64,000 nt of DNA, from the NCBI GenBank assembly GCA_963623485.1, contig CAVFLV010000014.1, forward strand, positions 6,461-70,460, written 5' to 3'. Of the stretch, positions 1-38,432 are shown piece by piece. This DNA is from a bacterium. GTDB taxonomy: Bacteria; Patescibacteriota; Saccharimonadia; Saccharimonadales; Saccharimonadaceae. Both the position numbers and the translations under genes were made by a program. The notes under the pieces were generated by a model. It did not search any database and was not told where the DNA came from. It was given only the letters and a program-made list of their open reading frames with translations. Every line of letters starts with the position of its first letter. Positions within the stretch are counted from its first letter, which is position 1.

Positions 1-113
1 TTTTTGGTCGCGACCACAATAATCGCCACAATCAAAATCAAAATTATCGCTATCGCAATCGTCGCCACCGCAATAATTTTCCGACGCTCCTTTTTATCCT
101 CTTGATAATACAT
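1..113 (-). CDS. hypothetical membrane protein, N-terminal fragment running off the left edge
   Basis: ATG at 113-111. Hand translation MYYQEDKKERRKIIAVATIAIAIILILIVAIIVVATK gives a basic patch plus one TM helix. Open to base 1. Confidence 0.4.
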   Translation of the reverse strand, partial: MYYQEDKKERRKIIAVATIAIAIILILIVAIIVVATK

Positions 114-186
114 AAAAACTCCTTATCTTCCCATTATAGCACACATTCGGAGTTTTGTCAATTTTTTAGGGGTATTATGGCGAAAA

Positions 187-2247
187 TCAGGCTCCGGCCA
201 CACAGCGCACGGAAAAACCGTATACTTTGGGGTAGCTAGAGAAGCCTGGACTGGTACTTGAGGTGCTGAGATACATAACGTACGCAGTGGACGAATAGAA
301 ATTTGTGTAGTATGCGGTAGACGACCAGTAGAGACCATATCTGTTCCGATATTCGCTTTTGCTAGAGTTCCACCGCCCAGCATAAAGGAAGTTATTCGGG
401 AATTGGCGGAGCCGTGCGGACATCGCCGTTCCGGTCGGGCTCGTATAAGAACCCATGTAAGAACTCAACCCGCCCATAGAGGTAGATAGTGTACCAAAAC
501 TGTAGTTCGTGGTAGAATTTCCACTCGGCAATCGCCAGTTGGTCGGGCATAACGAGGTAGCTACGCTATCCGAAGCCGTGGCGTCATCCATCGCGGTAGT
601 ATTCGCCTTAGCCGCCGCCCAAGTATAATAGTTCCCGTAGCCATACCACTGCACCGCGTTGCCGTCCGCGTTGTATGATGGAGTTAAGGCTGTACCAGAT
701 GCATTCGTGCCACCAATATTAGTGTTATTGTTATTAAACCGTGGCATAGTAAAACCACTTCCGGTATTATACAGACTGTTTGCTGTTGTACTATTCGCAA
801 AATTGGTATCCTCCGAGCTAGCCAGTTTCGTAAAATCTCCGCCCACCCCTTGCGAACCCGAGGCAATTTTTTCCGCCGAGGTCGAGTCATCTAGTCGTAA
901 GTTTTCTAGCATCCAACAGTTTCCATCCGTAAGCCTCGCCACGGCGTAGACGTTCCCGTCGCGACTGTCTTCAAGCGCGATAAACGAGTTTGCCGTCGCG
1001 GTAAAGACCGCGCTAGTAGAGTTATAAGTTACGGCCGTGAGTTTGGTAGAGCAAACGCTAGATGAGAAAGTTTGCATAGTGTATTCCGTGGATTTCGGGA
1101 GCCACACGGCGTAAAGATTTAGCCCTTCGCTAGCTAGCGCGCTAAAGGTGATGTCTTCCATCGGACCGTAAATCGTGTCAGTGCCGATTGTCGGGTTTGC
1201 TTTTGTGCTCCAACCGAGGAACGCATAGCCACTTCGCTTAAAGTTATATGCCTGAAGTGTTGCCGAAGTCGCAGAGGTGCCTACGCTTTGATTCGCCATG
1301 GCGCCTTCTGCCGCGCTCGCATTACTATTGTAGCAAATGTATCCCGCATCACAAGCGCTCACTACGCTCTCTGTCCATTGAGCGTAAAGTGTTAATGCGT
1401 TGCTTGTAGAAGTTTGGTCGAGGGCATAACTTCCGCCCGCGGCGTATTCCACTCCGTCCCCGCTTGCGGTGGTATTCCAGCCGGCAAAATCATAGCCACT
1501 TCGTGTCGGGGTATCGGAGCTAATAATCGCTGTTTCTGACGCTGAGCTAGCGCTAGCGTTGCTCGGCATACCAGAAACCGTGTCCGTTCCGGCGTTGGCG
1601 TTGTAGGTAATCGTGTACGGTGTCGGGTTGGCGGTTACGGTGAACACAAAGGTATTTGAATAACTACCTATTGCCGTGTTCATATCTGCCCGTGCGCCAA
1701 TAGAAACGGTGTAATCGTTGCTCGTTGCGCTCGTAGCCGAGTCTATGGTTTCGTCTTCTGTGTCGGGCCACGGCAGATAATTCGTGTTAGCTACGCTGTT
1801 TAATTTACTCGGTTTATAACCCCATTTACCATTGTAGGCGCTAGTATTGAATGTTTCTGCCGAAATTGCCGAGTCGATCGAGGTAAACCCGGTCGTGCCG
1901 GCAGCATTATTCAGCCCCGTCGCGCTACTGGCTTTAACTTTCAAGACATATCCTGCTGCATGGGTCGTAGAAACGCTAATGGTTTCGTCTCCAGAATCCG
2001 CAAATTTCCCTTCTACAGAGGGCGGTAAGTCAATCGAGGGGCTACCCGAAATCGTGAGCGTTAAAGACGACGTAGCGGCAAGGACTTTTTTGCCACCAAA
2101 AAGCGAGACGATCATTATGATTGCTAACGCAAGTACCGTCAAAACCATTAACGCCACTCGTTTCGTCGCGACCGTCAAGAAGCCTGCCCCCCCCCTAAAA
2201 GGACCGCTACTTAAAACTGGTAAAGCTAGATTTTTTATACTCCACAT
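187..2247 (-). CDS. large surface protein, paralog A (Listeria-Bacteroides-type repeats plus FISUMP-like C-terminal domain)
   Basis: Track ORF 187..2298. TM/signal anchor VALMVLTVLALAIIMIV. Two repeats of the type YTITYNANAGTD..GYDFAGWNT..LTLYAQW. C-terminal DSRDGNVYAVARLTDGNCWMLENLRL .. YGNYYTW .. CPTNWRLPS. Start moved to ATG 2247 because TTG 2298 lies upstream of the TGGTATAAT -10. Confidence 0.8.
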   Translation of the reverse strand: MWSIKNLALPVLSSGPFRGGAGFLTVATKRVALMVLTVLALAIIMIVSLFGGKKVLAATSSLTLTISGSPSIDLPPSVEGKFADSGDETISVSTTHAAGYVLKVKASSATGLNNAAGTTGFTSIDSAISAETFNTSAYNGKWGYKPSKLNSVANTNYLPWPDTEDETIDSATSATSNDYTVSIGARADMNTAIGSYSNTFVFTVTANPTPYTITYNANAGTDTVSGMPSNASASSASETAIISSDTPTRSGYDFAGWNTTASGDGVEYAAGGSYALDQTSTSNALTLYAQWTESVVSACDAGYICYNSNASAAEGAMANQSVGTSATSATLQAYNFKRSGYAFLGWSTKANPTIGTDTIYGPMEDITFSALASEGLNLYAVWLPKSTEYTMQTFSSSVCSTKLTAVTYNSTSAVFTATANSFIALEDSRDGNVYAVARLTDGNCWMLENLRLDDSTSAEKIASGSQGVGGDFTKLASSEDTNFANSTTANSLYNTGSGFTMPRFNNNNTNIGGTNASGTALTPSYNADGNAVQWYGYGNYYTWAAAKANTTAMDDATASDSVATSLCPTNWRLPSGNSTTNYSFGTLSTSMGGLSSYMGSYTSPTGTAMSARLRQFPNNFLYAGRWNSSKSEYRNRYGLYWSSTAYYTNFYSSTAYVMYLSTSSTSPGFSSYPKVYGFSVRCVAGA
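2187..2195 (-). repeat. homopolymer tract C9 on plus strand (G9 on coding strand) inside the N-terminal coding region of paralog A
   Basis: Plus strand reads ctg ccccccccc taaaa. It encodes ..PFRGGAG.. between ATG 2247 and the membrane anchor. Confidence 0.95.
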
Positions 2248-2268
2248 ACAATCCACGCTTATATCATA

Positions 2269-2298
2269 ATTATACCACTCGTGGTTATAGAAAAACAA
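2269..2298 (-). promoter_or_regulatory. putative sigma70-type promoter of paralog A
   Basis: Minus strand TTGTTT-N18-TATAAT with TGg extension. Homologous to the sequence upstream of paralog B. Confidence 0.45.
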
Positions 2299-2378
2299 GT
2301 TTTTTGGATGTTTAATTTAGTTTAATTTAATTTAATGGTCGGGAGATTTTAGTCAAAAATGGTGTAACGGCTTTAGAA

Positions 2379-4268
2379 TTATTCGCCGGCGAGGCAGCGG
2401 ACTGGTAGTCCGGCGCGTTTGTAATTGTTGTCGGATGTAGCTACTATAGATTCGACAATAGTAAAGGTTATTGCAAAATTAATATATTTTCCGTTCGACC
2501 AGCGTGTCCAGACCGATGAAGCTTTTGATTTGTTGTACGGTCCATAGTTGGTATATGTTCCAGAATATACAAAATTGTTTGGAAATTGACGAAGCCGAGC
2601 AGACATTACCGCTCCAGTCGGGGTTCCACTAGCATCAAATGTGTCGGTAGTATCGCCGCTCATTGAAGCAGTTAATTCACGGGTTTTGTATACTGAATCG
2701 CGGTAACTGCCCGGCAACTTCCAATTAGCCGGGCAGATATCGCCAGCTACTGAACTGGACGTACTATATTTTCCGTTCCCCGCCGTCGCCGAATACCAGT
2801 TATAGTAATTCCCATAAGCATACCAGTTTCCTTCGTAAGTTCCGTCCATTTTTAGGTTATCCGTGTTAAGCATGGATTGATCGATACATTCCGCAGTGTC
2901 CTCGCTGCACCACGAACTCGAACTCGCCGAAAGCACAAAACCTTCAGCCGGGTTGTGAGTATTTGCGCTCGTGATTGTCGCCGTGTTGTCTAGTCGCAAG
3001 TTCTCCAGCATCCAACAATTCCCGTCCGTTAGCCTCGCCACGGCGTAGACATCTCCGTCACGCTCGTCTTCTAGAGCGATGAGTGAATCCGCGGAGACTG
3101 TGAAGTTGGTAGAAGTAGTCACCGAGGTTGTGCCGGACAGGTTAGTAGTGGTAGTTGCGGTGCTACTGTAGACCGTTGCGGTAAGTTCAGCGGAACAAAC
3201 GCTGGCCGAGAAAGTCTGCATCGTGTACTCCGTAGATTTCGGCAGCCACACCGCGTAAAGTGTGATGCCATCATCAGAAAGATTGGAAAAAGTGATATCT
3301 TCCATCGGTCCATAAATCGTATCAGTCCCAATCACCGGGTTTTGTTTCGTGCTCCAGCCGATGAAAGCGTAGCCGCTGCGTTTAAAGTTATATGCCTGAA
3401 GCGTTGCCGAGGTCGCGTAGGTAATTTCCTGAGGTGCCATCGTCCCCTCCACCGTGTCCGTGCCGGCATTACTATTATAATAAATGTATTTTTTCTTTGT
3501 CCACTGCGCATAAAGCGTAAGCGTATTATCTGTAGAAGTTTGGTTGAGGGTAAACGTGCTACCTTTGGCATAACCCGTCCCGCTTCCGCTAGCGGTAGTA
3601 TTCCATCCGCTAAAATCATAACCGCTCCGCGTCGGGGAGTTGGAGCTAATCGTGACCGTTTCTGTCGCTGAGCTAGCGCTAACATTACTCGGCATCCCCG
3701 AAACCGTGTCCGTCCCCGCATTAGCATTATAGGTGATTTTATACGGCGTGGGGTTCGCGGTAACAGTAAAAACAAAAGTGTTAGAATAATCCCCAATCGC
3801 GGTATCAATATTCGCTCTTGCGCCGATCGAGACCGTATATTTATTATTGGTGGCACTAGAAACTGAATCCAAGGTACTACCACTAGTCGTCGGGGCGGGG
3901 AGATAATTTGTGTTCGCCGTGCTATTTAGCTTGCTTGGCTTGTAGCCCCACTTACCATTATACGCGCTGGTATCAAAAGTCTCCGCCGAAATCGCCGAGG
4001 AAATAGAGGTGAAACCCGTCGTGCCGGACGAGTTCTTGAGGTCCGTCGCGCTGCTAGCCTTGACTTTCAAAACATACCCCGCCGCATGAGTAGTAGAAAC
4101 ACTAATCGTCTCATCTCCCGAATCCGCAAACTTCCCCTCCGCCGACGGCGGCAGGTTAATCGTAGGATTACCCGAAACAGAAATCGTCAGCGACGACGCC
4201 GTGGCAAAAACTTTTCGCTCGCCAAAAATCATTGTTATTACCGGAACCAAAAATACCAGCGCGAGCAA
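2379..4268 (-). CDS. large surface protein, paralog B (same architecture as paralog A)
   Basis: 629-aa ORF from TTG 4268. The first ~240 aa are near-identical to paralog A (GKFADSGDETISVSTTHAAGYVLKVKASSAT..). Same repeat type. Divergent FISUMP-like C-terminus (DGNCWMLENLRL, CPANWKLPG). Confidence 0.8.
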   Translation of the reverse strand: MLALVFLVPVITMIFGERKVFATASSLTISVSGNPTINLPPSAEGKFADSGDETISVSTTHAAGYVLKVKASSATDLKNSSGTTGFTSISSAISAETFDTSAYNGKWGYKPSKLNSTANTNYLPAPTTSGSTLDSVSSATNNKYTVSIGARANIDTAIGDYSNTFVFTVTANPTPYKITYNANAGTDTVSGMPSNVSASSATETVTISSNSPTRSGYDFSGWNTTASGSGTGYAKGSTFTLNQTSTDNTLTLYAQWTKKKYIYYNSNAGTDTVEGTMAPQEITYATSATLQAYNFKRSGYAFIGWSTKQNPVIGTDTIYGPMEDITFSNLSDDGITLYAVWLPKSTEYTMQTFSASVCSAELTATVYSSTATTTTNLSGTTSVTTSTNFTVSADSLIALEDERDGDVYAVARLTDGNCWMLENLRLDNTATITSANTHNPAEGFVLSASSSSWCSEDTAECIDQSMLNTDNLKMDGTYEGNWYAYGNYYNWYSATAGNGKYSTSSSVAGDICPANWKLPGSYRDSVYKTRELTASMSGDTTDTFDASGTPTGAVMSARLRQFPNNFVYSGTYTNYGPYNKSKASSVWTRWSNGKYINFAITFTIVESIVATSDNNYKRAGLPVRCLAGE

Positions 4269-4296
4269 AATTAATATTTTTGCGTATTTTCTACGG

Positions 4297-4313
4297 CTCT
4301 CTCTCTCTCTCTC
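4297..4313 (-). repeat. dinucleotide repeat (CT)8.5 on plus strand, (GA)8.5 on coding strand, just upstream of the paralog B ORF
   Basis: ctctctctctctctctc read directly. It lies between an upstream ATG (4378) and the TTG-initiated ORF (4268). Confidence 0.95.
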
Positions 4314-4383
4314 GAGCGGAAATCACAAAAAACACAGGAAATTGGATTTCTAGTTTTTTGCGTACATGTCATATTCATATATT

Positions 4384-4412
4384 ATGATAGCATTTATGGT
4401 TATAAAAAACAA
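4384..4412 (-). promoter_or_regulatory. putative promoter of paralog B
   Basis: Minus strand TTGTTT-N17-TATCAT(AAT) preceded by TGC. Overlaps the tatD stop. Confidence 0.4.
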
Positions 4413-5323
4413 GCTTTCGCGTTTTTCGTCGTCTTTTGTGCAACTTCTGCTTTTGAGATTTCGAGCTTTAGCGCCAACCAATCGGCAATGTTGGAAATAA
4501 AGGCCGGCTCGTTCGTCCCGCCACGGTGTGGCACTGGCGCAAGAAATGGTGCGTCGGTTTCGAGCAAAATCCGCTCGAGCGGCGGCGTCGGCAAAGTCGA
4601 ATAAGTCGCGAGACCATTTACGCCAACATAAAAGTCCGTCTCCGTCAAAATGCGGCGCAAAACTTTTTTACTATCCGTAAACGAATGTACCACTCCGCGC
4701 ACCGTCGGAAAGTTCGCCACCACCGGAAAGAAATCATCAAACGCCTCCCGCACATGAAACGACACCGGCAAATCGTGGTCAGTCGCCAATTGTAGCATCT
4801 CCTCGAACAACCGAATTTGTTTTTTCCGGTCATAACCCTCATAATGATAATCCAACCCGACTTCACCGATAGCAATGGGTGAAGTGTTTATGTTCCGGCG
4901 CAGGGTATTCCGGAGCGCGGCAGCGCGAGGATTAGCGCGCTCTCCCCATGGCGATGGGCGAGAGCGACGCGACCCTGCGCGGAACATAAACGCTTCGTCG
5001 CCAGAACTTGCATTCTCCGGATGAATCCCGTAAGTCCAAAACACATTTTCGTGCCCTCGCGCAAACTCCCTCGCTGCCAAAGAATCCTCGTGCGATGTCC
5101 CGATGCAAATAATCTTTTTCACCCCAGCCCGAAAAGCCCGCTCAAGGCACATCTCTGCCTCTTCCTCTGAGAAAAACTCTCGATCATGGAGGTGACAATG
5201 GGCGTCCACCAGGAACGAAGAGCCTCTTTCGAGGACCGTAGGCTTGGCCGAACGGCCTTGAGTGTGTCCGAGAAAGACGGTTCTTCGTTCCTTGTTAGCA
5301 GAGCTTTTATCCACGATTTTCAC
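4400..5323 (-). CDS. tatD: TatD-family metal-dependent hydrolase/DNase
   Basis: VDAHCHLHD, GIHPE, GEVGLDYHY, HSF and ETDAPF motifs. Contains an Arg-rich insert of ~35 aa. Confidence 0.85.
   Translation of the reverse strand: MKIVDKSSANKERRTVFLGHTQGRSAKPTVLERGSSFLVDAHCHLHDREFFSEEEAEMCLERAFRAGVKKIICIGTSHEDSLAAREFARGHENVFWTYGIHPENASSGDEAFMFRAGSRRSRPSPWGERANPRAAALRNTLRRNINTSPIAIGEVGLDYHYEGYDRKKQIRLFEEMLQLATDHDLPVSFHVREAFDDFFPVVANFPTVRGVVHSFTDSKKVLRRILTETDFYVGVNGLATYSTLPTPPLERILLETDAPFLAPVPHRGGTNEPAFISNIADWLALKLEISKAEVAQKTTKNAKACFL
4886..4991. repeat. GC-rich palindromic element (~106 nt) embedded in frame in tatD
   Basis: Terminal inverted repeats gtttatgttccggcgcagggt (4886-4906) and accctgcgcggaacataaac (4972-4991), matching 20/21. 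Further internal palindromes include cccatggcgatggg. Confidence 0.6.
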
Positions 5324-7121
5324 GTTTCCGTTTAATCGGGTCGAGCTGACGCTTACGTAGCCGGAGCGACTTTGGCGTCACCTCGAGCAGTTCGTCATCA
5401 AGCAAAAAGTCCAAACATTGCTCGAGCGACAACTGCGTATACGGCGTCAGCTGAATCGCCCCGTCCGAAGCGTGTGTCCGCATATTCGTCAGTTGTTTTT
5501 CACGACAAACATTAATATCCAGGTCATCTTTTTTGTTCGACAGCCCCACAATCATCCCTTGATACACCGGCACCTGCGGCGGAATATACAAAATCCCCCG
5601 CGCCTGTGCATTGTCCAACGCGTAAGCTGTCGAAGTTCCACTCTCCGACGCAATCAGCGCACCATTGCGTTCCGGCTTATACTTCCCCTCGACCGGACGA
5701 TATCCACTTGGCAAGCTTGACATCAACACCGTGCCTTTGGTCGCAGTCAACAAGTTATTCCTTAACCCAATCAGTGCCGCTGTCGAAATTTCATACACAA
5801 ATCGCGTCGCTCCGCTCGTGGTCAGCTCCTGTGATTTTAATTCCGCTTTGCGAATCCCGAGTTCCTGCGACACTGCCCCCACAAACTCCGACTCCACTTC
5901 AATCGTCAAATTCTCAATCGGCTCCTGCTTTACGCCGTCGATTTCTTTATACACCACTTCCGGCCGCCCCGCCTCGAGTTCATAACCTTCGCGCCGCATT
6001 GTCTCGATTAATACCGAAAGATGTAGCTCGCCCCGTCCCGACACCTTGTAGCCCAGTCCGTCCGGCGTGATTTTCAGCGCAATATTCGTTTCCAGCTCTT
6101 TTTCGAGCCGTTCCGCAATCTGCCGCGAAGTCGTAAACTCGCCTTCACGCCCCTTTAGCGGCGAAGTATTTGGCCCGATATAAATCGACAGCGTCGGCGC
6201 CTCGAGCTCGATCGTCGGCAAAGCCTCTGGATTGTCACCCGTCGCAATCGTATCACCAATATTCGCCTCCGCCACCCCCGTCAGCGCCACAATGTCCCCC
6301 GCAATCGCCTCGGAAACTTCCTCTTTCCCGAGACCCTTATAAACGAAAACTTTGTCAATCTTGCCAGGGTGCGTAGAAGAACTACTTAAAATTTTTACAC
6401 TCTGACCTTTTTTAAGTTTACCTCTAAAAATCTTGCCAATACAATATTTTCCAAGATAATTATCCGACGCCAGCGCCGCAACCAAAAGTTGCGCCGACTC
6501 GGCGGTTTCGTCCACCGACGGCGCCGGAATATCGTTGATAATCGACTCGAAAATCACATGCAAATCATTGTCCAGCTTGGTCGTTTTCCCCGCTCTGCCC
6601 TCGCGCGCAATTGCATAATAAACCGGATAAAACAGTTGCGACTCGTCCGTCGCGAGCTCCAAAAACAGACTCTCGATCTCACTTTTCACCTCTTCAATTC
6701 GCGCCGCCGGCTTGTCGATTTTATTAATTATCACCACTGGCTTCAAATTCAGCTCCAATGCCTTTTGCAATACAAACTTCGTTTGTGGCATTGGCCCTTC
6801 TTGCGCATCTACAATCAAAAACACCCCGTCCGCCATATTCAGCGTCCGCTCGACCTCCCCCGAAAAGTCCGCGTGCCCCGGCGTATCGATAATATTAATC
6901 TTATACCCGTCATAATACACACAAGTCTGCTTTGCCGTAATCGTAATCCCGCGCTCATGCTCCTGATCCATCGAATCCATAATCAAGGTCTGCGACATCT
7001 CGGCCTGATTGTCGCGAAAAGTGTGCGACTGCTTTAACAGCCCGTCCACTAATGTAGTTTTGCCATGGTCAACGTGCGCAATAATCGCCACGTTGCGAAT
7101 TTTATCTTTATTCAAAGTCAT
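5307..7121 (-). CDS. typA: translational GTPase TypA/BipA
   Basis: AIIAHVDHGKTTLVD, DTPGHADF and NKIDK GTPase motifs. 604 aa. Confidence 0.95.
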   Translation of the reverse strand: MTLNKDKIRNVAIIAHVDHGKTTLVDGLLKQSHTFRDNQAEMSQTLIMDSMDQEHERGITITAKQTCVYYDGYKINIIDTPGHADFSGEVERTLNMADGVFLIVDAQEGPMPQTKFVLQKALELNLKPVVIINKIDKPAARIEEVKSEIESLFLELATDESQLFYPVYYAIAREGRAGKTTKLDNDLHVIFESIINDIPAPSVDETAESAQLLVAALASDNYLGKYCIGKIFRGKLKKGQSVKILSSSSTHPGKIDKVFVYKGLGKEEVSEAIAGDIVALTGVAEANIGDTIATGDNPEALPTIELEAPTLSIYIGPNTSPLKGREGEFTTSRQIAERLEKELETNIALKITPDGLGYKVSGRGELHLSVLIETMRREGYELEAGRPEVVYKEIDGVKQEPIENLTIEVESEFVGAVSQELGIRKAELKSQELTTSGATRFVYEISTAALIGLRNNLLTATKGTVLMSSLPSGYRPVEGKYKPERNGALIASESGTSTAYALDNAQARGILYIPPQVPVYQGMIVGLSNKKDDLDINVCREKQLTNMRTHASDGAIQLTPYTQLSLEQCLDFLLDDELLEVTPKSLRLRKRQLDPIKRKRENRG

Positions 7122-7166
7122 AACGATAATTTTATCACATTTTATTGCATTAGTCCAGAGTAAAAC

Positions 7167-7195
7167 TTGACTTTTTGTGCAATCTGTGCTATAAT
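7167..7195 (+). promoter_or_regulatory. promoter upstream of the dCMP deaminase gene
   Basis: TTGACT-N17-TATAAT with TGC extension. Confidence 0.55.
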
Positions 7196-7268
7196 CAAAA
7201 GATATCGCTACTACCTAGCCAAAATCTTGTAAATCCATGCTATAATTTAATAAAATTGGAGATTTTTT

Positions 7269-7835
7269 ATGGAGCAGAGTAGTCAAACAGACCAAAAACA
7301 GCGCGCGTGGGACGAATATTTTATGGAAATTGCCAAAGTCGTGGCAACCAAATCCAAGGACCCGTCGTCCAAAATGGGCTGCGTGATTGTCGACCCGAAA
7401 AAACGCGTGGTTTCGATGGGCTATAACGGTATGCTCCAAGGCGCGGACGAATCCAAAATGACCCTCCTTGAACGTCCGATGAAATATTATTTCGCCATTC
7501 ACTCCGAGATGAACGCCCTGATTTTTGCTCGCCAAGATTTAACCGGTTGCACCGTTTATAATCGCGTGGCGACGTGCGAAAATTGTCTTAAATACTGTCT
7601 GCAGGCGGGGATTAAGCGGTTCGTTTATAACGAACTGCGCGTCAAATCTCACTCCGTGGACCCCAAAAAATCCATGACCAACGTCGAAACCGACGAGGCG
7701 GTAATTCGGCTCCTCACTTCCATGCCCGACGTCGAGACTTTGAATCTCACAAATGGCAAAACCTACATTGAAGATATCCTTGACTCTTACGCCAAGGATT
7801 CTCCAGAATATGCTCGTCTAATTAAATGGTGCTAA
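7269..7835 (+). CDS. deoxycytidylate (dCMP) deaminase, ComEB-like
   Basis: HSEMNAL and TCENC zinc-binding deaminase motifs. Confidence 0.8.
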   Translation: MEQSSQTDQKQRAWDEYFMEIAKVVATKSKDPSSKMGCVIVDPKKRVVSMGYNGMLQGADESKMTLLERPMKYYFAIHSEMNALIFARQDLTGCTVYNRVATCENCLKYCLQAGIKRFVYNELRVKSHSVDPKKSMTNVETDEAVIRLLTSMPDVETLNLTNGKTYIEDILDSYAKDSPEYARLIKWC

Positions 7836-8107
7836 TGTTTACATTTGCATCCAAATCTCCAAATCATGATGCAAATCGCAATCGCCGAGATGATTACGCT
7901 TCCGGCCACGACGCCCGCCGCCGACATTGGCACTAGCCATTCGTTTTCGGAAGTCGTACTAGTCAGCGACATTTCTTCCGGCCGCTCCCCGCCCATCGGA
8001 CCGCCGCTCATCTCCGTCTCGTCCCCTTCCTCCGGTTTTTCCGGCGGAGTGTTTGTGAGCGTCTCCGTCGTATCCGTAGTGTCGGTAGTTTTAGTGGTGT
8101 CTTCCAT
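7832..8107 (-). CDS. hypothetical small acidic protein with C-terminal TM helix
   Basis: 91-aa ORF with a TTDTTDTTE / Pro-Glu-rich N-terminus and TM helix AGVVAGSVIISAIAICIMIW. No recognisable homology. Confidence 0.35.
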   Translation of the reverse strand: MEDTTKTTDTTDTTETLTNTPPEKPEEGDETEMSGGPMGGERPEEMSLTSTTSENEWLVPMSAAGVVAGSVIISAIAICIMIWRFGCKCKH

Positions 8108-8165: not shown

Positions 8166-8813
8166 TCACCACTCAATTTCCGTAAGTTGTACTTTTCTTA
8201 AAAACTCGTTGCATTTCGAAAACGGGCGACTACCAAAAAATCCGTGATACGCCGAAAGTGGCGACGGGTGTGCCGACTCAACCACCAAGTGTTTACTCTC
8301 ATCAATTAGCGCTTTTTTCTTGCGCGCGTCCTGTCCCCACAAAATAAACACCACGTGCTCGCGATTTTCATTCAAATACTTTAGCACTTCCGTCGTAAAA
8401 ATCTCCCAGCCTTTGCCCGCATGCGATTTCGGCTGATGCGCCTCGACGGTCAGCACAGTATTCAAAAGTAGCACTCCTTGGCTTTGCCAATGCCTCAAAC
8501 TCCCACTTTTATCGCGGCACCGCCCTATGTCTCTCTCGATTTCTTTGTAGATATTTTTTAGAGACGGCGGCACCGGCTGTCCACTCGGCACCGAAAACGC
8601 CAACCCCTCCGCCGCTCCGGGCGTATGATACGGGTCTTGTCCTAAAATCACGACCTTAATCTCGTTCAAATCCGTCGTAAATGCCGAAAATACTAGTTGT
8701 TTTGGCGGAAAAATCGTCTTCGTAGCATAAGCTTGACACAAAAACTCCGCTAATTCTCTAAAATAGGGCTTTTCAAACTCGGAATTTAAAAACGGTCGCC
8801 AACTCTCATGCAT
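8166..8813 (-). CDS. ung: uracil-DNA glycosylase
   Basis: GQDPYH, LLLNTVLTV and HPSPLSA motifs. Confidence 0.95.
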   Translation of the reverse strand: MHESWRPFLNSEFEKPYFRELAEFLCQAYATKTIFPPKQLVFSAFTTDLNEIKVVILGQDPYHTPGAAEGLAFSVPSGQPVPPSLKNIYKEIERDIGRCRDKSGSLRHWQSQGVLLLNTVLTVEAHQPKSHAGKGWEIFTTEVLKYLNENREHVVFILWGQDARKKKALIDESKHLVVESAHPSPLSAYHGFFGSRPFSKCNEFLRKVQLTEIEW

Positions 8814-8847
8814 GATATAATAATTATAACACTTATTGGAGAATCAT

Positions 8848-9507: not shown

Positions 9508-11228
9508 GTTCCCTGCTCGACAATATTCCCGTCGCGCATCACCAAAATCAAATCCGAATTGCGGATAGTCGACAGCCGGTGAGCAATCACAAACGACGTC
9601 CGTCCGGCGGTCAATTTTTCAAACGAATCTTGGATTAATTGTTCGGTTCGAGTGTCCACGTTCGAGGTCGCCTCGTCTAAAATCATCATCGGCGGATTTT
9701 TAATCATCGCCCGTGCAATCGTAATCAACTGTTTTTCGCCTGCCGACACGTTGTCCGAGTCCTCGCTAATCACGGTCTTATAACCTTTCGGCAGCGCCTC
9801 GATAATATGATGCACATTGCTCGCCTTCGCGGCCTTTTTGATTTCGTCTAGGCTCGCGTCCTGCCGACCGTAGCGCAGATTATCTTCAATCGTTCCGCTA
9901 AACAGCCAAGTGTCCTGCAAAACCATACCAAACATCCCGCGCACCTCGCTCCGTTTCATTTCGGTAGTCGGCACACCGTCAATCGTGATATATCCGGCAG
10001 TCGGGTCGTAAAAACGCATCAACAAATTAATCAAAGTAGTTTTTCCGGCGCCAGTCGGCCCAACAATCGCCACTTTCATCCCCAGCTTCACCTCGACCGA
10101 AAAGTCGCGAATCACCGGCGTTTCTGGGTTGTAGCCAAAGTTAACTTCATGAAATTCAACCTGCCCGCGCACTTTTTTGATTTTTTCCGCCAAATTTTTG
10201 TCCGAACTTTCTTCCGGCTCGTTCAAAAAATCAAAAATCCGCTCGCTCGCCGCCAGTAGCGATTGAATGGTCGAAGTCGTAGATGCAATTTCTGTAATCG
10301 GGCGGTGGAATCGCGACACATATTGCAAGAAAGCCTGAATGTTCCCGATATTGATTTTGCCTTCAATCACAAACAGCCCGCCGAGAATACACACCGCAAC
10401 ATAGCCGAGGTTAGTAAAAATCCCCGTCACCGGATACGACAGCGACGAAAAGATTTGTGCCTTCGCCGTCGCGGTGGTTAACTTTTTGTTGGTCTGCTCA
10501 AAATCTTCAATCGACGCTTCCTCGTGCGAGTTGGATTTTATAATCACTTGCCCCGCATAATTTTCCTCAATTTTACCGTTCAAAATCCCAAGCAGCGTGC
10601 GCTGTTCACGGAAATATTTTTGCGCAAACTTCATAATAATCCCCACCACCACAATCGATAGTGGCACCACCACAAACGACACAATCGATAGCGGAACACT
10701 AATCAGTAACATCATCACCATTACGCCAATCAGAGTCGTAAGGCTCAGCGACACGTCCGCAATTTCTTGCGACATGGAAGTCGCCAGCACGTCCACGTCG
10801 TTCGTCATTCGTGACAAAGTGTCGCCGTGTTTGTGCTTATCGAAATACGCAATCGGCAAGCGCGAAATTTTGTCGATAATTTTGAGCCGTAAATCTTGGG
10901 TGTATTTCGCCGTCGTCACCGCAAGAATATAAGCCTGCGCGTAATTCAGCCCCGACGAAATCAGAAACAGCGCCACCGCCAGCCCAGCTTTCTGACCGAT
11001 CGCTCCAAAATCAATTTCCGGATAAGTGTCCACCGCAATATTGGTCATATCGCCCAAAATTTTCGGCACAAACAGTCCAATCACCGCCGAGCCAATCGCG
11101 AGCAAAATCGAAATGACAATCTTCAGCCGATATTTTTTAATCGAACCGAAAAAATTATTCAACGCTTTTTTGCTATCCTTGGCTTTTTCTCCGCCGCCAC
11201 TATGCTCCATGTTTTCCTTCCTCCGCAA
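9432..11228 (-). CDS. ABC exporter, fused permease/ATPase
   Basis: Six-TM N-terminal domain. GPTGAGKTT Walker A, VSAGEKQ signature, MMILDEATS Walker B. Confidence 0.9.
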   Translation of the reverse strand: MRRKENMEHSGGGEKAKDSKKALNNFFGSIKKYRLKIVISILLAIGSAVIGLFVPKILGDMTNIAVDTYPEIDFGAIGQKAGLAVALFLISSGLNYAQAYILAVTTAKYTQDLRLKIIDKISRLPIAYFDKHKHGDTLSRMTNDVDVLATSMSQEIADVSLSLTTLIGVMVMMLLISVPLSIVSFVVVPLSIVVVGIIMKFAQKYFREQRTLLGILNGKIEENYAGQVIIKSNSHEEASIEDFEQTNKKLTTATAKAQIFSSLSYPVTGIFTNLGYVAVCILGGLFVIEGKINIGNIQAFLQYVSRFHRPITEIASTTSTIQSLLAASERIFDFLNEPEESSDKNLAEKIKKVRGQVEFHEVNFGYNPETPVIRDFSVEVKLGMKVAIVGPTGAGKTTLINLLMRFYDPTAGYITIDGVPTTEMKRSEVRGMFGMVLQDTWLFSGTIEDNLRYGRQDASLDEIKKAAKASNVHHIIEALPKGYKTVISEDSDNVSAGEKQLITIARAMIKNPPMMILDEATSNVDTRTEQLIQDSFEKLTAGRTSFVIAHRLSTIRNSDLILVMRDGNIVEQGTYDELLKLDGFFAELHNSQFADTTE

Positions 11229-12994: not shown

Positions 12995-14074
12995 TTATTT
13001 TTTGACTAGTCTTTTTTCGTGATGCATTTTCAGATAAATTGCCGGCCCCATTATAATATATATATAATACGAGAAGAACCGCCACAACAGCATCGCCCAA
13101 AACACATAACCGCTAGACAACCCCGAAAACACTAGGAAAAATGTTCCCTCCGCAGCGCCGGAATTGCCGGGCGTCGGCACAAAATACACTGCCGCCGTCA
13201 CCGCCACCGTCGTGGCAAGGCACACCATAAAGTCCACTTCCCCGCCAAACGCCGCTAGCACAAAAAACGGAATTACCGCCGTCAGTAAATTAAAAATCAC
13301 CGACAGTAGAATCGTCGCGAGTAGCAGCCCTTTAGTTTTTAAAATCGTTTTCATACATCCGGCATATTCGTTTACGCCTTTTTTCACTTTGGCGATAGTC
13401 GCAGTTTTATTTTTGACGAGATGTAGTCTCGCAAACAATCTTACACCGAGCGAAATTAGTTCCGAAGTGGTTTTTGGCAAAAACGTCGCAATCAGCACCG
13501 CCACCGGCCAAAAAGCATAAAAGAGTAGCCCGAGACACGCCGTCGCGGTCAAAGTCGAATTGTTAATCAAGAATCCGCCGCCAAAAATCGCAATTACGGC
13601 AATGATTAAAAACCCGAGCTGATTCGAAATCATCCCCACAATCGGAATCGTCGTCGCCATGCCGGCCGACAACTTGCCATTTTTGTGCATATAATAAATC
13701 TGAAATGGTTGCCCGCCAATCGCCGCCGGCGTAATATTGTCATAATATTTGCCGAGTAGCACCGTTCGCCTCGCAATTTTCCAGTCTTTCCGATTTTTGC
13801 GCGTCCCGCTGGTGTGGCGCATCATCAGTACATATTTATAAATCTCCGCCACAATACCAACCAAAAAACACAACGCCGCTGGAATGAGCAGCCAAAAATT
13901 AATTTTCACTTTCCCTAGTTCTGTCGCCGAATTCGAACCACCAAATTCCGACGCCGCCGTCGCTGCAATCACCGCAATATTAATCAAAACAAACAGAAAT
14001 ACAAGTAGTGGCTTGCGCTTAGATTTTTTGGGCGCAAAACTGTCAGGCGTAATTTCGGGAGTCGGCTTACTCAT
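12995..14074 (-). CDS. polytopic membrane protein, lysylphosphatidylglycerol-synthase-TM / flippase-like family
   Basis: About 8 TM helices. PTPGNSGAAEG motif typical of the UPF0104/LPG_synthase_TM family. Confidence 0.5.
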   Translation of the reverse strand: MSKPTPEITPDSFAPKKSKRKPLLVFLFVLINIAVIAATAASEFGGSNSATELGKVKINFWLLIPAALCFLVGIVAEIYKYVLMMRHTSGTRKNRKDWKIARRTVLLGKYYDNITPAAIGGQPFQIYYMHKNGKLSAGMATTIPIVGMISNQLGFLIIAVIAIFGGGFLINNSTLTATACLGLLFYAFWPVAVLIATFLPKTTSELISLGVRLFARLHLVKNKTATIAKVKKGVNEYAGCMKTILKTKGLLLATILLSVIFNLLTAVIPFFVLAAFGGEVDFMVCLATTVAVTAAVYFVPTPGNSGAAEGTFFLVFSGLSSGYVFWAMLLWRFFSYYIYIIMGPAIYLKMHHEKRLVKK

Positions 14075-17305: not shown

Positions 17306-17312
<7 letters not shown>

Positions 17313-17863
17313 CTTCCCGAATCCCTTTCAATTTGTTTTTGGTAGCGTTCTTCTTCCGAAAAAATACATCCACAATACTTTTGCATATATAGTCCCGCCT
17401 CGCGCGCTTTTTGTTGTCCTTCGCGAAACCCCACTCGAAAATCCCGATATAAAAACTCCACACCATATTCCTCCGCCAACATTTCCGCCACTCGTTTTAA
17501 TTCCTCGTGTTTTTGATACGGCGAAACCAGCAAAGTCGTTGTAAAAGCATCAAATCCATGCTCGGCGGCATATCGCGCAGTTTTCGCCAGCCGTTTTGGA
17601 TAGCAATAATTCACACACCGATTTTTAATATCACCCACCACGTTTTTACAAAACTCATCCAACCCATATTCTTCCACAAAAATCGCCTCCGCGTCCACCG
17701 TTTTAGCATACTCTTTCAAACAATCTCGCCGAGTTTTATACTCAATATACGGATGAATATTCGGATTATACCAAAAAATCGTCGGCTCGATATTTTCCGC
17801 GCGCAAACTTTCAATACAATAAACACTACACGGCGCACAACAAGTATGCATCAACAACTTCAT
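17306..17863 (-). CDS. queH: epoxyqueuosine reductase QueH (DUF208)
   Basis: LLMHTCCAPCS N-terminal Cys motif and C-terminal CGC. 185 aa. Confidence 0.8.
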
Positions 17864-17891
17864 TACTATATTATATCATAAAGTTGACAAA

Positions 17892-19304
17892 CTAAGCCAA
17901 ATATTCCCAAACCGAACCGTTCGGCGTGTCCTTGACGCCAATTCCCCGCTCGGTAAGTAATCCGCGCAGCCGGTCGGCTTCCGCCCAATCTTTGCGCGCG
18001 CGAGCAGTTTCTCGTTCAAAAATGATACGTCGAGCGCCGTCGTCGATATCAGGTGTGTCCGCGATTAAGTTTAACCCAAAAAGTTCATCGACTTTTTGCC
18101 AATCCGAAAATGTTAGCTTGGACTCGTCAATTACCGCAAACGCTTCCGGCGAATTTAAATTATTATTCACCGTCTCGAGGATTTTTGCAAACGCACTACT
18201 AGTCGCCACAACATCTTCTTTTCCGCAAGTCATCTCGTCAGCCTTGCAAACTCTAGTTCTTTCGCTCTGAAAATCATCACCCCGTTGATAACACTCCGCA
18301 ATCCGATTCCGCCAATGTAGCCTCCGCGCTTTTGCTGCCGCGAGCGATTCGAACGTGAAATTCCGTTCGCCGCGAAAATGTCCCGACAAAACCCACATCT
18401 TGAAATCGAGTGGCGAAAATCCGCGCTCGCCTAAATCGTCCAAAGTGTAAATATTCCCGAGCGATTTCGAAACTTTTTCCCCGTCAATGGTAATAAAATT
18501 ACAATGCAACCAATACCGCGACAATTCCCGCCCAGTCATGGCAAAAGTTTGTGCGATTTCATTAGTGTGATGCACTGGGATATGGTCAATACCGCCCGTA
18601 TGAATATCGATCGGCTCGCCGAGCTCTTCGTGAATAATGGTCGAACACTCGAGGTGCCACCCTGGATACCCCGGCCGCCCGTGATAATCCCACCGCATAG
18701 CATGTTTTTCGCCCGGCTGAATAAGCTTCCACACCGCAAAATCCGAGGCATTTCGCTTTTCGTTCGAAAATCCGACTCGCGCCCCCGCTTGTAGCCCCGC
18801 TAAATCCAATTTTGCAAATTTCGCATAATCTTTAAACTTTGCCGTATCAAAATAAACTCCGTCCGTCGTTTCGTAGGTAAAACCGTTCGCCGTCATCGCG
18901 TCTACCGCCCGCATATCCTCCTCAACATAATCTGTCGCGTGCGCCAAAACATCCGGCTCGGTCAGGCGCAGATTTCGAAAATTCCGCAAAAAATCATCAC
19001 CATAAAATTTCGCAATATCGTAAACACTTTTCCCCTCGCGTTCCGCACCTTTTTCTAGCTTATCTTCCCCTTCGTCACCGTCTGAAGTTAAATGCCCCAC
19101 ATCAGTAAAATTCAACACTCGGCGGACTTTCAAACCGTCCGTTTTCAAAGTCCGAATTAATAAATCCCAATAAATATACGCCGCAAAATTCCCGATATGC
19201 GGAAAACTATAAACCGTCGGCCCACAAGTATAAATCTTCACCACGTCCCCGAGTGGCGTAAACGGCTCGATTTTGCGACTAGCGGTATTATAAAGTTTAA
19301 GCAT
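17892..19304 (-). CDS. cysS: cysteine--tRNA ligase
   Basis: MLKLYNT.. start, PHIGN (HIGH) and KVSKS (KMSKS) motifs. ATG 19304 overlaps the end of the upstream gene by 8 nt. Confidence 0.93.
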   Translation of the reverse strand: MLKLYNTASRKIEPFTPLGDVVKIYTCGPTVYSFPHIGNFAAYIYWDLLIRTLKTDGLKVRRVLNFTDVGHLTSDGDEGEDKLEKGAEREGKSVYDIAKFYGDDFLRNFRNLRLTEPDVLAHATDYVEEDMRAVDAMTANGFTYETTDGVYFDTAKFKDYAKFAKLDLAGLQAGARVGFSNEKRNASDFAVWKLIQPGEKHAMRWDYHGRPGYPGWHLECSTIIHEELGEPIDIHTGGIDHIPVHHTNEIAQTFAMTGRELSRYWLHCNFITIDGEKVSKSLGNIYTLDDLGERGFSPLDFKMWVLSGHFRGERNFTFESLAAAKARRLHWRNRIAECYQRGDDFQSERTRVCKADEMTCGKEDVVATSSAFAKILETVNNNLNSPEAFAVIDESKLTFSDWQKVDELFGLNLIADTPDIDDGARRIIFERETARARKDWAEADRLRGLLTERGIGVKDTPNGSVWEYLA

Positions 19305-20013
19305 GCAAAATTTTCTCCAAGGTTTTTTCAATTTCAACATATTTGTCGCGGGTTACGCCGTGTCGACCATGAGTTTTAATGGCGTTAATCAGCGGATTTT
19401 TGGTCAAAAGTTCCGGAATATTGTACGAAGCAATAATTTGGTCCTCGTTGCCATAAATCAAAGTGGTCGGTATTTTAGTTCCAACCAGCGTATTATAATT
19501 ATCTTTATCTAGCACAATTTTTGCCATCGAATTTTGGAACGCTTTTTCAGTCAGAATTGCAGGATTGGTCGCGCTCAAAATTTTCTCAAAAGTCTTGACC
19601 CCGATTTCAAAAGCCGGATTTTTAAAATCCTCCGCAGTGTAAATCGGCGGCGAAACCAAAATCAAATTCGCCACTTCCGGATAATATTTTTTCGCATATC
19701 GCGTCACGATTAAAGTCCCCATCGAATGTCCAACCATTACCACCGGCGTGGTTAAATTTAGATCAGCTAAAGCCTCATGCAGGGCGGTAAGTTGGTCGTT
19801 ATAATCATAGTTTAGCTCGTCGCTGGTATAAGATTTTCCCGAGCCGAGTAAATCAAAAGTAATAAATCTTACATCTTTCATTTTTTCGGACTCGCCGAGG
19901 TATTTCAAGGCATGGTCAAACGACGACGACTCCGCCGCGATGCCGTGAATCAATATCGCCGTCAGTTTTGGCGTTTTACTTTTGCAAAAATCATTAGTTT
20001 TCGTGAGTTTCAT
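19297..20013 (-). CDS. alpha/beta-fold hydrolase
   Basis: GHSMG nucleophile elbow. HG oxyanion region ILIHG. Confidence 0.7.
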   Translation of the reverse strand: MKLTKTNDFCKSKTPKLTAILIHGIAAESSSFDHALKYLGESEKMKDVRFITFDLLGSGKSYTSDELNYDYNDQLTALHEALADLNLTTPVVMVGHSMGTLIVTRYAKKYYPEVANLILVSPPIYTAEDFKNPAFEIGVKTFEKILSATNPAILTEKAFQNSMAKIVLDKDNYNTLVGTKIPTTLIYGNEDQIIASYNIPELLTKNPLINAIKTHGRHGVTRDKYVEIEKTLEKILHA

Positions 20014-20983
20014 CTAAAATCTCCGGTAAAATTTTAATTAAATCATTGACCACTTCTTCGTAGTTCGTGTCGTAGGTCCGAAAACCCGCCGCCATCGGAT
20101 GCCCACCGCCGCCAAAATACCCGGCTACTTTATCTGCTACCGGCGCGTCGGTACTACAACGAATTTTGCCCGTCACCTTGCCGTCCGGATAAGTTTTAAT
20201 CGCCACCGCGACCCGCACACCCTCAACCAATCTCAATTCTTCCAAAATCAACACGTTCGGATTGTATTCATCAGAATATTCACGAATATCCGCCCACGGA
20301 ATATGTACGGTCGCGAGTGCGCCATCAAGAGCATATTCCACGCGGTGAATTAAGTCGGCTTTGTAGTCCAAAATCCGAGGCGACTTTTTCATGAATTCGC
20401 GTCGTTTTTCTTCCAAATCCGCCATTATCGCTCCGAGCCGAGCTAGTTCCGCCGCAGTTTCAAAAGTTTCAGCCGTCACGCTAGCGCTAGTCAGCCCCAA
20501 AGTGTCCGACAGTAGTCCTTGCATCATCGCTTCCGCTGCCGGTTTGGGGATTTCTATTTTGTTCGCCTTGGCAGCCTTAAAAATCACTTCTGTACAGGAC
20601 GGCCGGGTTTCGATAATCGCCTCGTGCGGAAAGTCCAAATTGTCCGGCGTCTCGTGATGGTCGATCACTAGTACCGGCGCTGTGTACAACCGATTTTTAA
20701 TCGCCGCGTCGTCCAATAATTTCGACAGCAGCACAGTCGCCGCCGTATCTACAATAATATAGCCATCCGCCCTAAAATCAAATTCGTTCGAAACCCTAGC
20801 CCAATCGTCAAAATAATGCAGATATTTAGGAATATCCACTGGGCAATATAACGCAACCTCTTTGTCGGCGAGTAAATAGTCTAACGCCACGGCGCTGCCG
20901 AGCGAATCGCCGTCCGGATTCTCCGCCTGAATAATCGTGATTTTTTGCTTCCCAGCTAAAAATTGGCTTAAAATTTCGTACAT
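19994..20983 (-). CDS. nrnA: DHH-family phosphoesterase (NrnA-like oligoribonuclease/pAp phosphatase)
   Basis: DGDSLGS, DHH and GGGH motifs. Confidence 0.8.
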   Translation of the reverse strand: MYEILSQFLAGKQKITIIQAENPDGDSLGSAVALDYLLADKEVALYCPVDIPKYLHYFDDWARVSNEFDFRADGYIIVDTAATVLLSKLLDDAAIKNRLYTAPVLVIDHHETPDNLDFPHEAIIETRPSCTEVIFKAAKANKIEIPKPAAEAMMQGLLSDTLGLTSASVTAETFETAAELARLGAIMADLEEKRREFMKKSPRILDYKADLIHRVEYALDGALATVHIPWADIREYSDEYNPNVLILEELRLVEGVRVAVAIKTYPDGKVTGKIRCSTDAPVADKVAGYFGGGGHPMAAGFRTYDTNYEEVVNDLIKILPEILDETHEN

Positions 20984-21022
20984 ATATTATATTATACCAC
21001 AGGCATATGTTATAATAAATGC

Positions 21023-21454: not shown

Positions 21455-22050
21455 CCGCTTCAGCCAAAAAAGCACATTCCGCCTCGGTTCAAAACCGTTT
21501 GACCGGCTCGTCTCTAACCGGCCCGACTTACCTCACTATCGCACGCATGATTTTAGCGGTATTATTCATGCTCTTCGCCCTCCTTCCCGACACTTGGTGT
21601 AAGGTCCTAGCTTTTATTATTTTTATTATCGCGTCCTTAACTGACCTAATCGACGGCAAGTGGGCCCGCCAGAAAAAAATCGTCACCGACCTTGGCGCTT
21701 TTCTCGATCCGCTCGCGGACAAAATGCTGACCGGCCTCGCCTTTTTGGTCCTGGTGTATCTAGGCATCGTCCCGATTTGGGTTTTTGCAATTATTCTGGT
21801 GCGTGACTTTGCGGTAGACGGCATGCGCATGATGGCGGCCAGAAACGGCAGAACTATCGCCGCCTCGATTTATGGCAAATGGAAAACCACTTTCCAAATG
21901 ATCGCTTTGTCGATTATTCTACTCAACCTCACCACAAACCTCGTCCTATTTACCATTCTCGGCAACTTTTTCCTCTATCTTTCGCTAATGCTCACGATTT
22001 TCTCCGGCGTCGACTATTTGATCAAAGGCTACCGCGAAGTTATTAAATAA
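21451..22050 (+). CDS. pgsA: CDP-diacylglycerol--glycerol-3-phosphate 3-phosphatidyltransferase
   Basis: DLIDGKWARQ..G..LDPLADK CDP-alcohol transferase motif. ATGA overlap with the upstream stop. Confidence 0.85.
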   Translation: MTASAKKAHSASVQNRLTGSSLTGPTYLTIARMILAVLFMLFALLPDTWCKVLAFIIFIIASLTDLIDGKWARQKKIVTDLGAFLDPLADKMLTGLAFLVLVYLGIVPIWVFAIILVRDFAVDGMRMMAARNGRTIAASIYGKWKTTFQMIALSIILLNLTTNLVLFTILGNFFLYLSLMLTIFSGVDYLIKGYREVIK

Positions 22051-22729: not shown

Positions 22730-22764
22730 GTTTTAATTATATCATATTATGGTAAAATAATAAT

Positions 22765-38297: not shown

Positions 38298-38371
38298 CCA
38301 CAAAATATCCCCCAAATGCCCCCCTAGGGGTATCAAGAAACATCCACAAAATAGCCCCAAATGCCCCCCCC
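38298..38371. repeat. two ~28-nt direct repeats (ccacaaaata(t/g)cccc(c)aaatgcccccc), period ~45 nt
   Basis: Copies at 38298-38325 and 38343-38371, upstream of the orphan-gene promoter. Confidence 0.8.
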
Positions 38372-38432
38372 GAAACTACTAGCAACCAAAAAAAGAACGC
38401 CAGTTCTCTGTCGTCCTTTTTTGCCTTAGCGA

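Follow-up and report, generated by a model that had tools for sequence, protein, structure and literature searches.

A (GA)n Tract in the Leader-Coding Region of a Surface-Protein Gene as a Probable Slipped-Strand Contingency Locus in a Gut Saccharibacterium

The 64,000-nucleotide (nt) stretch analyzed here (hereafter the window; contig CAVFLV010000014.1 of assembly GCA_963623485.1, positions 6,461 to 70,460) belongs to a bacterium of the family Saccharimonadaceae and carries on its minus strand two tandem genes of predicted surface proteins, paralogs A and B. The leader-coding region of paralog B contains a perfect GA dinucleotide repeat, and we consider it probable that this gene is a slipped-strand simple-sequence contingency locus of a gut Saccharibacterium. 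The assembled (GA)8.5 allele is most likely the OFF, or null, phase, from which one slip in either direction is predicted to reconnect a start codon with the body of the gene. The relevant features, including open reading frames (ORFs), are as follows.

4313-4297, minus strand: perfect (GA)8.5 simple sequence repeat (SSR), GAGAGAGAGAGAGAGAG, 17 nt, read directly; putative slipped-strand switch.
4378-4376 and 4372-4370, minus strand: paired in-frame ATGs, candidate leaderless or near-leaderless starts.
4354-4359, minus strand: A6 tract separating the ATGs from the GTGs, a second length-variable run.
4323..4335, minus strand: GTG 4335-4333, T6 run and GTG 4326-4324, alternative candidate starts.
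4325-4323, minus strand: TGA, the upstream closure of the long-ORF frame.
4378-4271, minus strand: upstream ORF as assembled, 35 codons (MNMT...NTQKY*), a predicted truncated OFF-phase product.
4268-4266 and 4232-4230, minus strand: fallback starts within the hydrophobic core, TTG (629 amino acids, aa) and ATG (617 aa), respectively.
2379..4322, minus strand: open frame of paralog B, a multidomain beta-rich surface protein.
4272..4298, minus strand: basic patch SRRKYAK(IL), n-region of a signal or anchor sequence, in the long-ORF frame.
4277-4221, minus strand: hydrophobic core ILILLALVFLVPVITMIFG, then ERKVFATA, a likely signal-peptidase A-x-A site before SSLTISVSG (whole feature 4197..4277).
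4412-4384, minus strand: putative paralog B promoter, with -35 TTGTTT (4412-4407), a 17-nt spacer and the extended -10 TGcTATCAT (-10 at 4389-4384).
187..2298, minus strand: paralog A, with its promoter at 2298-2269, ATG 2247, a G9 tract at 2195-2187 in frame (ON) and the ORF running to 187.

On the minus strand, the region has the layout TGcTATCAT-aatat-ATGaatATG...cgcAAAAAActag...GTGTTTTTTGTGatttccgctc-(GA)8G-ccgtagaaaatacgcaaaaatattaattTTGctc. The ATG frame, translated as MNMTCTQKTRNPISCVFCDFRSRERERAVENTQKY, passes through the repeat and ends at TAA 4273-4271, 2 nt ahead of TTG 4268. The long frame is open from 4322 for 647 codons, with the translation FPLERERESRRKYAKILILLALVFLVPVITMIFGERKVFATASS..., and its earliest canonical start is TTG 4268, followed by ATG 4232. 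The distance from the ATG to the TTG (4378-4268) is 110 nt, or 2 mod 3. When the repeat was edited in silico, loss of one unit or gain of two joined the ATG to an ORF of 665 or 667 codons, and other lengths did not; gain of one unit or loss of two placed GTG 4335/4326 in frame with the long ORF, that is, at (GA)6.5, 9.5, or 12.5. Hence (GA)7.5 joins the ATG, (GA)9.5 joins GTG 4335, and (GA)8.5 is the sole phase that joins neither. An initial annotation of this DNA had placed the start at ATG 4378 and the repeat at 4297-4313 with a 110-nt offset, and had proposed fusion of the ATG to the long ORF by one unit fewer or two more; all of this holds on re-reading and editing. It was also right that only 5 nt separate TATCAT (4389-4384) from ATG 4378 and that TTG 4268 has no Shine–Dalgarno sequence (SD), while its estimate of some 30 residues ahead of the repeat has to be reduced to about 22.

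Chance does not account for the tract. The GA tract is the longest dinucleotide repeat in the 64 kb, the runners-up having 4-5 units, and the expected number of GA runs of even 13 nt is 0.00 (100 dinucleotide-preserving shuffles of the window). The longest homopolymer is the C9 at 2187-2195, which is the G9 tract of the paralog A leader; this homopolymer and the GA tract are the longest simple repeats of the window.

Close relatives of paralog B were obtained by a full-length protein search, and comparison of the locus in related genomes, suggested in the initial annotation, revealed the tract in the same place in other lineages. Locus L005 is syntenic with the window (TatD, then B′, then A′) and contains (GA)11.5 at 11076-11098, at the same position as the window tract, followed by a 47-nt purine-rich insertion. 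Two proteins of the L005 lineage, P0128 (697 aa, (GA)11.5) and P0249 (695 aa, (GA)8.5), are identical save for one Arg-Glu pair, i.e., two residues, corresponding to three GA units. In loci L086 and L091-93, the B 5′ region is about 95% identical to that of the window, the tract has decayed to GAGAGAGAG+CAAG, i.e., (GA)4.5+CAAG, and a C>T change creates a TGA in the leader; in this sister lineage, the switch is dead, beyond merely OFF. The tract thus measures 8.5, 11.5, 8.5, and, in decayed form, 4.5 units across the lineages. The A-run of the B leader also varies (A5 in L086, A6 in the window, and A7 in L091-93) between otherwise near-identical flanks; its length alters the ATG phase and leaves the GTG phase unchanged. 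Two further claims of the initial annotation agree with these data: the leader-coding part of a surface-protein gene does contain a length-polymorphic repeat (L005, P0128 versus P0249), and the assembled B allele is indeed cut off from the upstream starts at (GA)8.5.

Considered as a contingency locus, paralog B has a perfect repeat of hypermutable length, and this repeat is placed where it alters the reading frame. Length differences between the same flanks were found both for the GA tract (P0128/P0249) and for paralog A (G8/G9). ON and OFF alleles were both seen for A; for B, the window allele is OFF, the L005 type is open from a GTG, and the L086 type is dead.

Exact-protein look-ups for B (from the TTG start), A (from ATG 2247), and TatD (from two starts) gave no match, and the window's own B allele has no second database copy (a cluster of 1). 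A metagenome scan yielded four homologs, 42-45% identical, without a repeat at their 5′ ends. The TatD homologs P0009, P0010, P0012, and P0021 are followed by a different gene, and the contigs with the ON form of A′ begin inside B′ and provided no further GA-tract allele. BipA of the window is 100% identical to an independent 2.3-kb Logan contig, which ends before the locus. Matches of the conserved 19-mer described below in IMG/VR were chance only. Many independent assemblies (L094-L102) break inside paralog B; the breaks probably stem from the near-repeat N-terminal domains of A and B. The A/B locus will often be fragmented or missing in metagenome-assembled genomes.

The promoter hexamers of paralog B, their 17-nt spacing, and the TGc are identical in L005, L086, and L091-93 and paralogous to the paralog A promoter; the B promoter overlaps the TatD stop codon (4402-4400). 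In L005, the sole upstream ATG (11016) is the counterpart of ATG 4372, and ATG 4378 is replaced by ATA. The choice of ATG 4378 in the initial annotation therefore stands as to frame, while the conserved codon is ATG 4372; the two are in the same frame, and the arithmetic is unaffected. The gap between TATCAT and the ATG is 5 nt for window ATG 4378 and 11 nt for window ATG 4372 and L005 ATG 11016; L005 has in addition an overlapping TAAAAT 6 nt ahead of the ATG. About one third of the long ORFs of the window show an extended -10 (TGnTAnAAT), 6-7 nt, and then an ATG (about 18 promoters; for example, the ORFs at 8168-8843, 17308-17875, 19996-20986, 22045-22732, 41774-42734, and 54544-55567), and the others have GGAGG-type SDs or neither feature. 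Given this arrangement, leaderless mRNAs seem to be very common in this genome.

The native start of the long frame probably lies upstream of TTG 4268. Between the tract and this codon, three substitutions distinguish the window from L005, and in the long frame they are R>K, I>V, and a synonymous Leu change; this argues that RRKYAK is translated and that translation begins upstream. TTG 4268 is an unlikely native start because it is TTA in L005, has no SD, and would entail loss of the basic n-region common to all family leaders; it is kept in the L086-type lineage. ATG 4232 is likewise without an SD. The public gene call for B begins at this ATG (617 aa, P0126; MIFGERK), and the signal peptide is lost. 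A leaky product may arise by reinitiation after TAA 4273.

As for the GTG, its homolog in L005 (11054) heads an open 697-codon ORF, and the frame is the same in P0128/P0249; this GTG/TTG start of the open frame lies 38 nt downstream of the ATG. The distance from the GTG to the tract is 22 nt in every lineage, and that from the conserved ATG is 58, 59, or 60 nt according to the A5, A6, or A7 run. The agreement in GTG phase rests on three or four independent alleles, with a chance expectation of about 0.1. In the 20-residue leader, 4/9 identities were counted in the ATG frame versus 4/8 in the GTG frame, a comparison of few residues. Other arrangements were considered and set aside. The GA run cannot serve as an SD for a downstream start, there being no start codon 5-12 nt beyond it; the GTG has no TAnnnT box ahead of it, which makes a promoter for leaderless initiation at this codon unlikely; and UGA recoding is unlikely, as the housekeeping genes are intact under code 11.

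The proposed mechanism is as follows. Transcription would proceed from TTGTTT-17-TGcTATCAT and start at, or within a few nt of, ATGs 4378/4372, so that (GA)n would lie between the candidate starts and the codons for the basic patch and the hydrophobic core. Absence of MutS/MutL raises repeat instability, as in Helicobacter pylori and Campylobacter jejuni. No MutS/MutL has been found in Saccharibacteria (Jaffe et al. 2021, PMC8406219). Replication slippage would alter n by whole units, probably frequently given this reported lack, and each unit change would shift the 629-codon body among three phases. At (GA)8.5, no start would reach the body, only a 35-residue peptide would be made, and the gene would be OFF or at most leaky; loss of one unit would join the ATG, and gain of one would join GTG 4335. 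In the ON phases, the tract would encode a variable (Arg-Glu)n, and its length would be tolerated because the leader is probably cleaved at FATA|SS. The adjoining paralog A would be switched independently by its G8/G9 tract.

The natural alleles of paralog A show poly-G switching of the textbook type. The G9 of the window keeps MWSIKNLALPVLSSGPFRGGAGFLTVATKR... in frame. In L005, there is a G8 (13341-13348), translation stops after MWSIKNLALPVFDSGPFRGGQAT*, and an intact 665-codon body follows; L101 and L102, assembled independently from this lineage, have a G9 and the full 688-aa protein. A blastn alignment of L005 with L101/L102 extends over 2193 nt without a mismatch, and its single gap corresponds to that G. 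G8/G9 thus toggles MWSIKNL...RGGAGYLTV versus a stop. In the L086-type lineage, L086 (9455-9462) and L091-L100 have an out-of-frame G8 (11 L086-type loci); the look-up used the short 653-aa product and was hence biased toward OFF alleles, and P0262 (686 aa) is the G9 ON form of this lineage. Since A and B are found in different states in one genome, switching of the two paralogs independently of each other appears strongly supported; the initial annotation had suggested independent ON/OFF switching from the G9 tract of A and the GA tract of B, and it is the A side that the G8/G9 alleles support strongly. Some other features of paralog A can be noted. The public call for A starts inside the hydrophobic core (MVLTVLAL, 2148-2150, P0259), so that the leader is lost. 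A (TTTAA)3 repeat is located at 2321-2335, about 25 nt upstream of the paralog A -35, and is degenerate in L086. In L091 (6693-7082), and also in L092, L093, L096-L098, and L100, A is closely followed downstream by small ORFs that contain a CdiA_C toxin domain; the window ends earlier.

Long simple repeats are enriched in the leaders of this family. A hidden Markov model of the N-terminal domain detected 21 family ORFs in the window and the fetched loci. An unbiased set, made up of the window and 80 TatD-anchored loci, totals 1.40 Mb and contains 16 long SSRs; 7 of these lie within the leader windows of 16 family genes, 4 kb in all (binomial P = 1.7e-14; P = 3.7e-10 after orthologous pairs were collapsed). 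The states are mixed: the G9 of L061 is in frame, and the G11 of L018 and the G9 of L077 are out of frame. In the OFF genes of L018 and L005 A′, bodies of 665-667 codons are still intact; the contig of L077 breaks off 0.4 kb past the tract. Close homologs share a common mature protein from ..VFATASSLTISVSG, preceded by at least six unrelated leader types, all of them with K/R ahead of the hydrophobic core; several leaders contain GGG(G), and some variants begin just after it. The mature B′ protein, too, occurs behind a wholly different leader (P0246 versus P0128). Among strains, the L086-type B bodies (P0250-P0254) differ with a synonymous divergence (dS) of 0.15-0.26. The same strains show no difference in the B 5′ region or in the paralog A protein, and this contrast suggests mosaic, cassette-like recombination among the paralogs. 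A-like segments are present in B bodies, for example TDCQAGYICYKSNAG in P0252/P0253.

Simple repeats were also noted elsewhere. In L053, from another Saccharibacterium, the spacer of a promoter contains a G9 (5484-5492, TTGACA...G9...TATAAT), and a (CT)13 lies between a promoter and an SD with ATG (1505-1530). The two tracts precede the genes of two secreted proteins that are paralogs of each other and belong to a family different from A/B; they may represent phase variation of the promoter or untranslated-region type. In L054 (Candidatus (Ca.) Nanosyncoccus alces), a mid-ORF G9 at 19075-19083 splits a long ORF into two frames. On the minus strand of the window, at 38300-38380, a G8 is found in the spacer downstream of rplK within an imperfect direct repeat of ~50 nt (GGGGGGCATTTGGGGNTATTTTGTGG...). 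This repeat precedes a hypothetical gene (143 aa) that intervenes between rplK and rplA.

The product of paralog B contains two Flg_new domains and one Fib_succ_major domain according to Pfam (46.1 bits against a cut-off of 27 and 35.4 bits against 33.9, respectively), and paralog A contains Flg_new (58.5 bits). Distant relatives (31-50% identity) are named ‘InlB B-repeat-containing protein’ in the sources. The AlphaFold2 model of B has a mean pLDDT (predicted local distance difference test) of 89.7; its fold matches, which are weak, are with YwfG and SraP, both cell-surface proteins, and, for the ~170 residues at the N-terminus, with pilin-like immunoglobulin folds. A surface, adhesin-like role of paralog B is plausible on the basis of this model. 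The ratio of nonsynonymous to synonymous divergence (dN/dS) of the body versus orthologs is 0.11-0.22, and the body is evidently under purifying selection. A 19-mer of the basic-patch region (4290-4272) is identical in all lineages. The leader is probably cleaved at FATA|SS, and in 41 family members the FATASS junction is the border between hypervariable leaders and the conserved mature protein. The gene upstream of B encodes TatD and is itself preceded by BipA. All relatives anchored on TatD are gut Saccharibacteria of animals, and many carry the label Ca. Nanosyncoccus; TatD identity to the nearest GTDB genome is 85%. Rfam gave no element in positions 1-8000.

Several observations weigh against ON/OFF switching of paralog B. 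None of the five distinct B-type 5′ alleles (eight assemblies) is open with the ATG in frame, and every phase-known L005-type allele is in the GTG phase, at two lengths 3 units apart; the L005 lineage could therefore display in-frame length variation of an always-ON gene, not switching. The GTG phase is shared by the L086-type alleles, in which the TGA blocks the frame. Inspection of the upstream sequence revealed no SD ahead of either GTG (4335, 4326). A generic consensus scan did not call the paralog B promoter, because TTGTTT matches just 3 of the 6 positions of TTGACA, and this promoter is therefore deduced from conservation. Finally, the L086-type loci combine a short, interrupted tract and a TGA with an intact body; as the body is intact behind a dead leader, its intactness alone is no proof of reversible switching. 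The ON state by ATG fusion put forward in the initial annotation is consequently upheld in one part, since loss of one unit does join the ATG, and not in the other, the frame open in relatives being that of the GTG. Some of these facts would suit a relic switch or silent cassette: B would no longer be expressed from its own 5′ end, its repeat would be decaying, and its body would be a donor or recipient in recombination, like silent pilS-type cassettes, with purifying selection imported by gene conversion. The missing ATG-in-frame allele, the decayed tract, TGA, and A5/A7 drift of the L086-type leaders, their mosaic bodies with A-like segments, and the different leader of P0246 all fit this explanation. 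We nevertheless consider it unlikely, as the window tract is a perfect 17 nt, one unit from either start, behind a promoter with conserved hexamers and spacing, the L005-type ORF is open through the tract at two lengths, and about 10 alleles are all free of frameshifts and stops over more than 600 codons. It is also quite doubtful that B is expressed constitutively from a downstream start, TTG 4268 (possibly by termination-reinitiation) or ATG 4232, with the upstream ORF and the repeat as an incidental or regulatory 5′ leader. TAA 4273-4271 does adjoin TTG 4268, the L086-type lineage keeps this TTG together with a dead leader and a body under purifying selection, and MLALVFLVPVITMIFGERKVFATA could perhaps still act as a minimal signal peptide. 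Against this, besides the TTA of L005 and the lack of an SD, a start at the TTG would discard the basic n-region, which is conserved and shows the substitution pattern of coding sequence; K/R precedes the hydrophobic core in every family leader; ATG 4232 would remove the signal peptide; and the position of the upstream-ORF stop relative to the TTG is not conserved in L086 or L091.

Two more explanations were considered. An assembly or sequencing artefact, in which the true tract is in frame and the consensus miscounted the repeat, is conceivable since dinucleotide runs are prone to stutter and the consensus of a mixed population picks a single length. This is improbable: the neighboring genes are intact, BipA matches the independent Logan contig exactly, and out-of-frame states recur at homologous tracts in many independent assemblies; moreover, a mixed population would itself be phase variation. 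Recoding on the repeat by a programmed -1 (or +2) ribosomal frameshift or by transcriptional slippage, with the DNA unchanged, is hardly credible. A -1 shift would be required in the window and in L005 alike, and a +2 shift on AGA-GAG would presumably re-pair perfectly, but there is no conserved slippery heptamer in 4322-4273 (A_AAA_AAT in L005 versus A_GAA_AAT in the window), and the negative Rfam result also counts against it. To our knowledge, transcriptional slippage is established for A/T homopolymers and not for GA repeats.

A more elaborate form of the contingency-locus reading can be advanced tentatively. The GA tract would then be a three-position selector with a leaderless ATG phase, an SD-less internal GTG phase, and a null phase, layered on leader-cassette exchange and gene conversion between paralogs; in the GTG phase, the leader peptide would be another one, and expression would probably reach another level. 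If so, this would be a multi-layer system of surface variation in an ultra-small epibiont devoid of mismatch repair, with a possible role in controlling adhesion to host bacteria or escape from phages or from mammalian immunity.

Full-text searches of the literature on Saccharibacteria, Patescibacteria, and the Candidate Phyla Radiation (CPR) found no description of phase-variation contingency loci; the nearest case is an in-frame repeat array in a Gracilibacterium. As far as these searches show, this would be the first contingency-locus system described in the CPR; slipped-strand contingency loci as a class of mechanism are already known. Saccharibacteria are obligate epibionts whose surface proteins must mediate contact with the host bacterium and, in animals, exposure to phages and immunity, and almost nothing is known of the regulation or variation of their surface. 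Genetic tools now exist for the phylum (PMC10633639), and A and B can be nominated as candidate adhesins for their use. Tract lengths are cheap, concrete markers of population heterogeneity in metagenomes. Gene callers systematically mis-start or truncate such genes, which hides the repeat-containing leaders.

By analogy, the B locus, its poly-G neighbor, and the pattern of the family suggest the same contingency strategy as in Helicobacter, Neisseria, Campylobacter, and Mycoplasma, a strategy that fits the reported lack of MutS/MutL in Saccharibacteria. The Hop genes of H. pylori constitute a paralogous family with gene conversion between members, in a species without canonical MutS/MutL repair. 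In one of them, oipA, slipped-strand mispairing changes the number of units in a CT repeat of the 5′ region, and the resulting frameshifts turn the gene ON or OFF (PMC10564699). Paralog B resembles the Hop genes (oipA/hopH, sabA, sabB, hopZ, and babB) in having a dinucleotide repeat, CT/GA in the duplex, in the leader-coding 5′ end of a surface-protein gene. The B protein, however, is unrelated and belongs to a CPR phylum: Pfam gives only Flg_new and Fib_succ_major, not a Hop porin, so that B is not a Hop-family member and the likeness is in the working. In B, the purine strand is coding and specifies a charged (Arg-Glu)n in the n-region, whereas the Hop repeat specifies Leu-Ser in the hydrophobic core; also, unlike in the Hop genes, the B mRNA is probably leaderless and has two candidate starts in different frames.

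The opa genes of Neisseria contain CTCTT pentamers in the signal-peptide coding region, and their about 11 dispersed copies switch independently and form mosaics by recombination. A and B are similar in that their states differ within one genome, bodies are mosaic, and leaders are exchanged, and they differ in having dinucleotide and homopolymer units and at least two copies in tandem. Paralog A works like the poly-G/C loci of C. jejuni, Neisseria, and Haemophilus, as G8/G9 in the ORF toggles the frame with no other change; its tract, though, belongs to the leader of a protein that a monoderm-like epibiont secretes. In lic1 of Haemophilus influenzae, the phase of a (CAAT)n repeat selects alternative initiation codons, with strong, weak, or no expression. 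The three phases of B (ATG, GTG, or neither) are comparable, the use of two starts in B being only a possibility, and the unit is a dinucleotide instead of a tetranucleotide. In the Vlp, Vsa, and Vaa systems of Mycoplasma, tiny host-dependent bacteria with reduced repair generate surface diversity by simple repeats and recombination of paralogs; compared with the A/B locus, the protein families are other ones and the repeats are placed otherwise, often as promoter poly-A or as in-frame tandem repeats.

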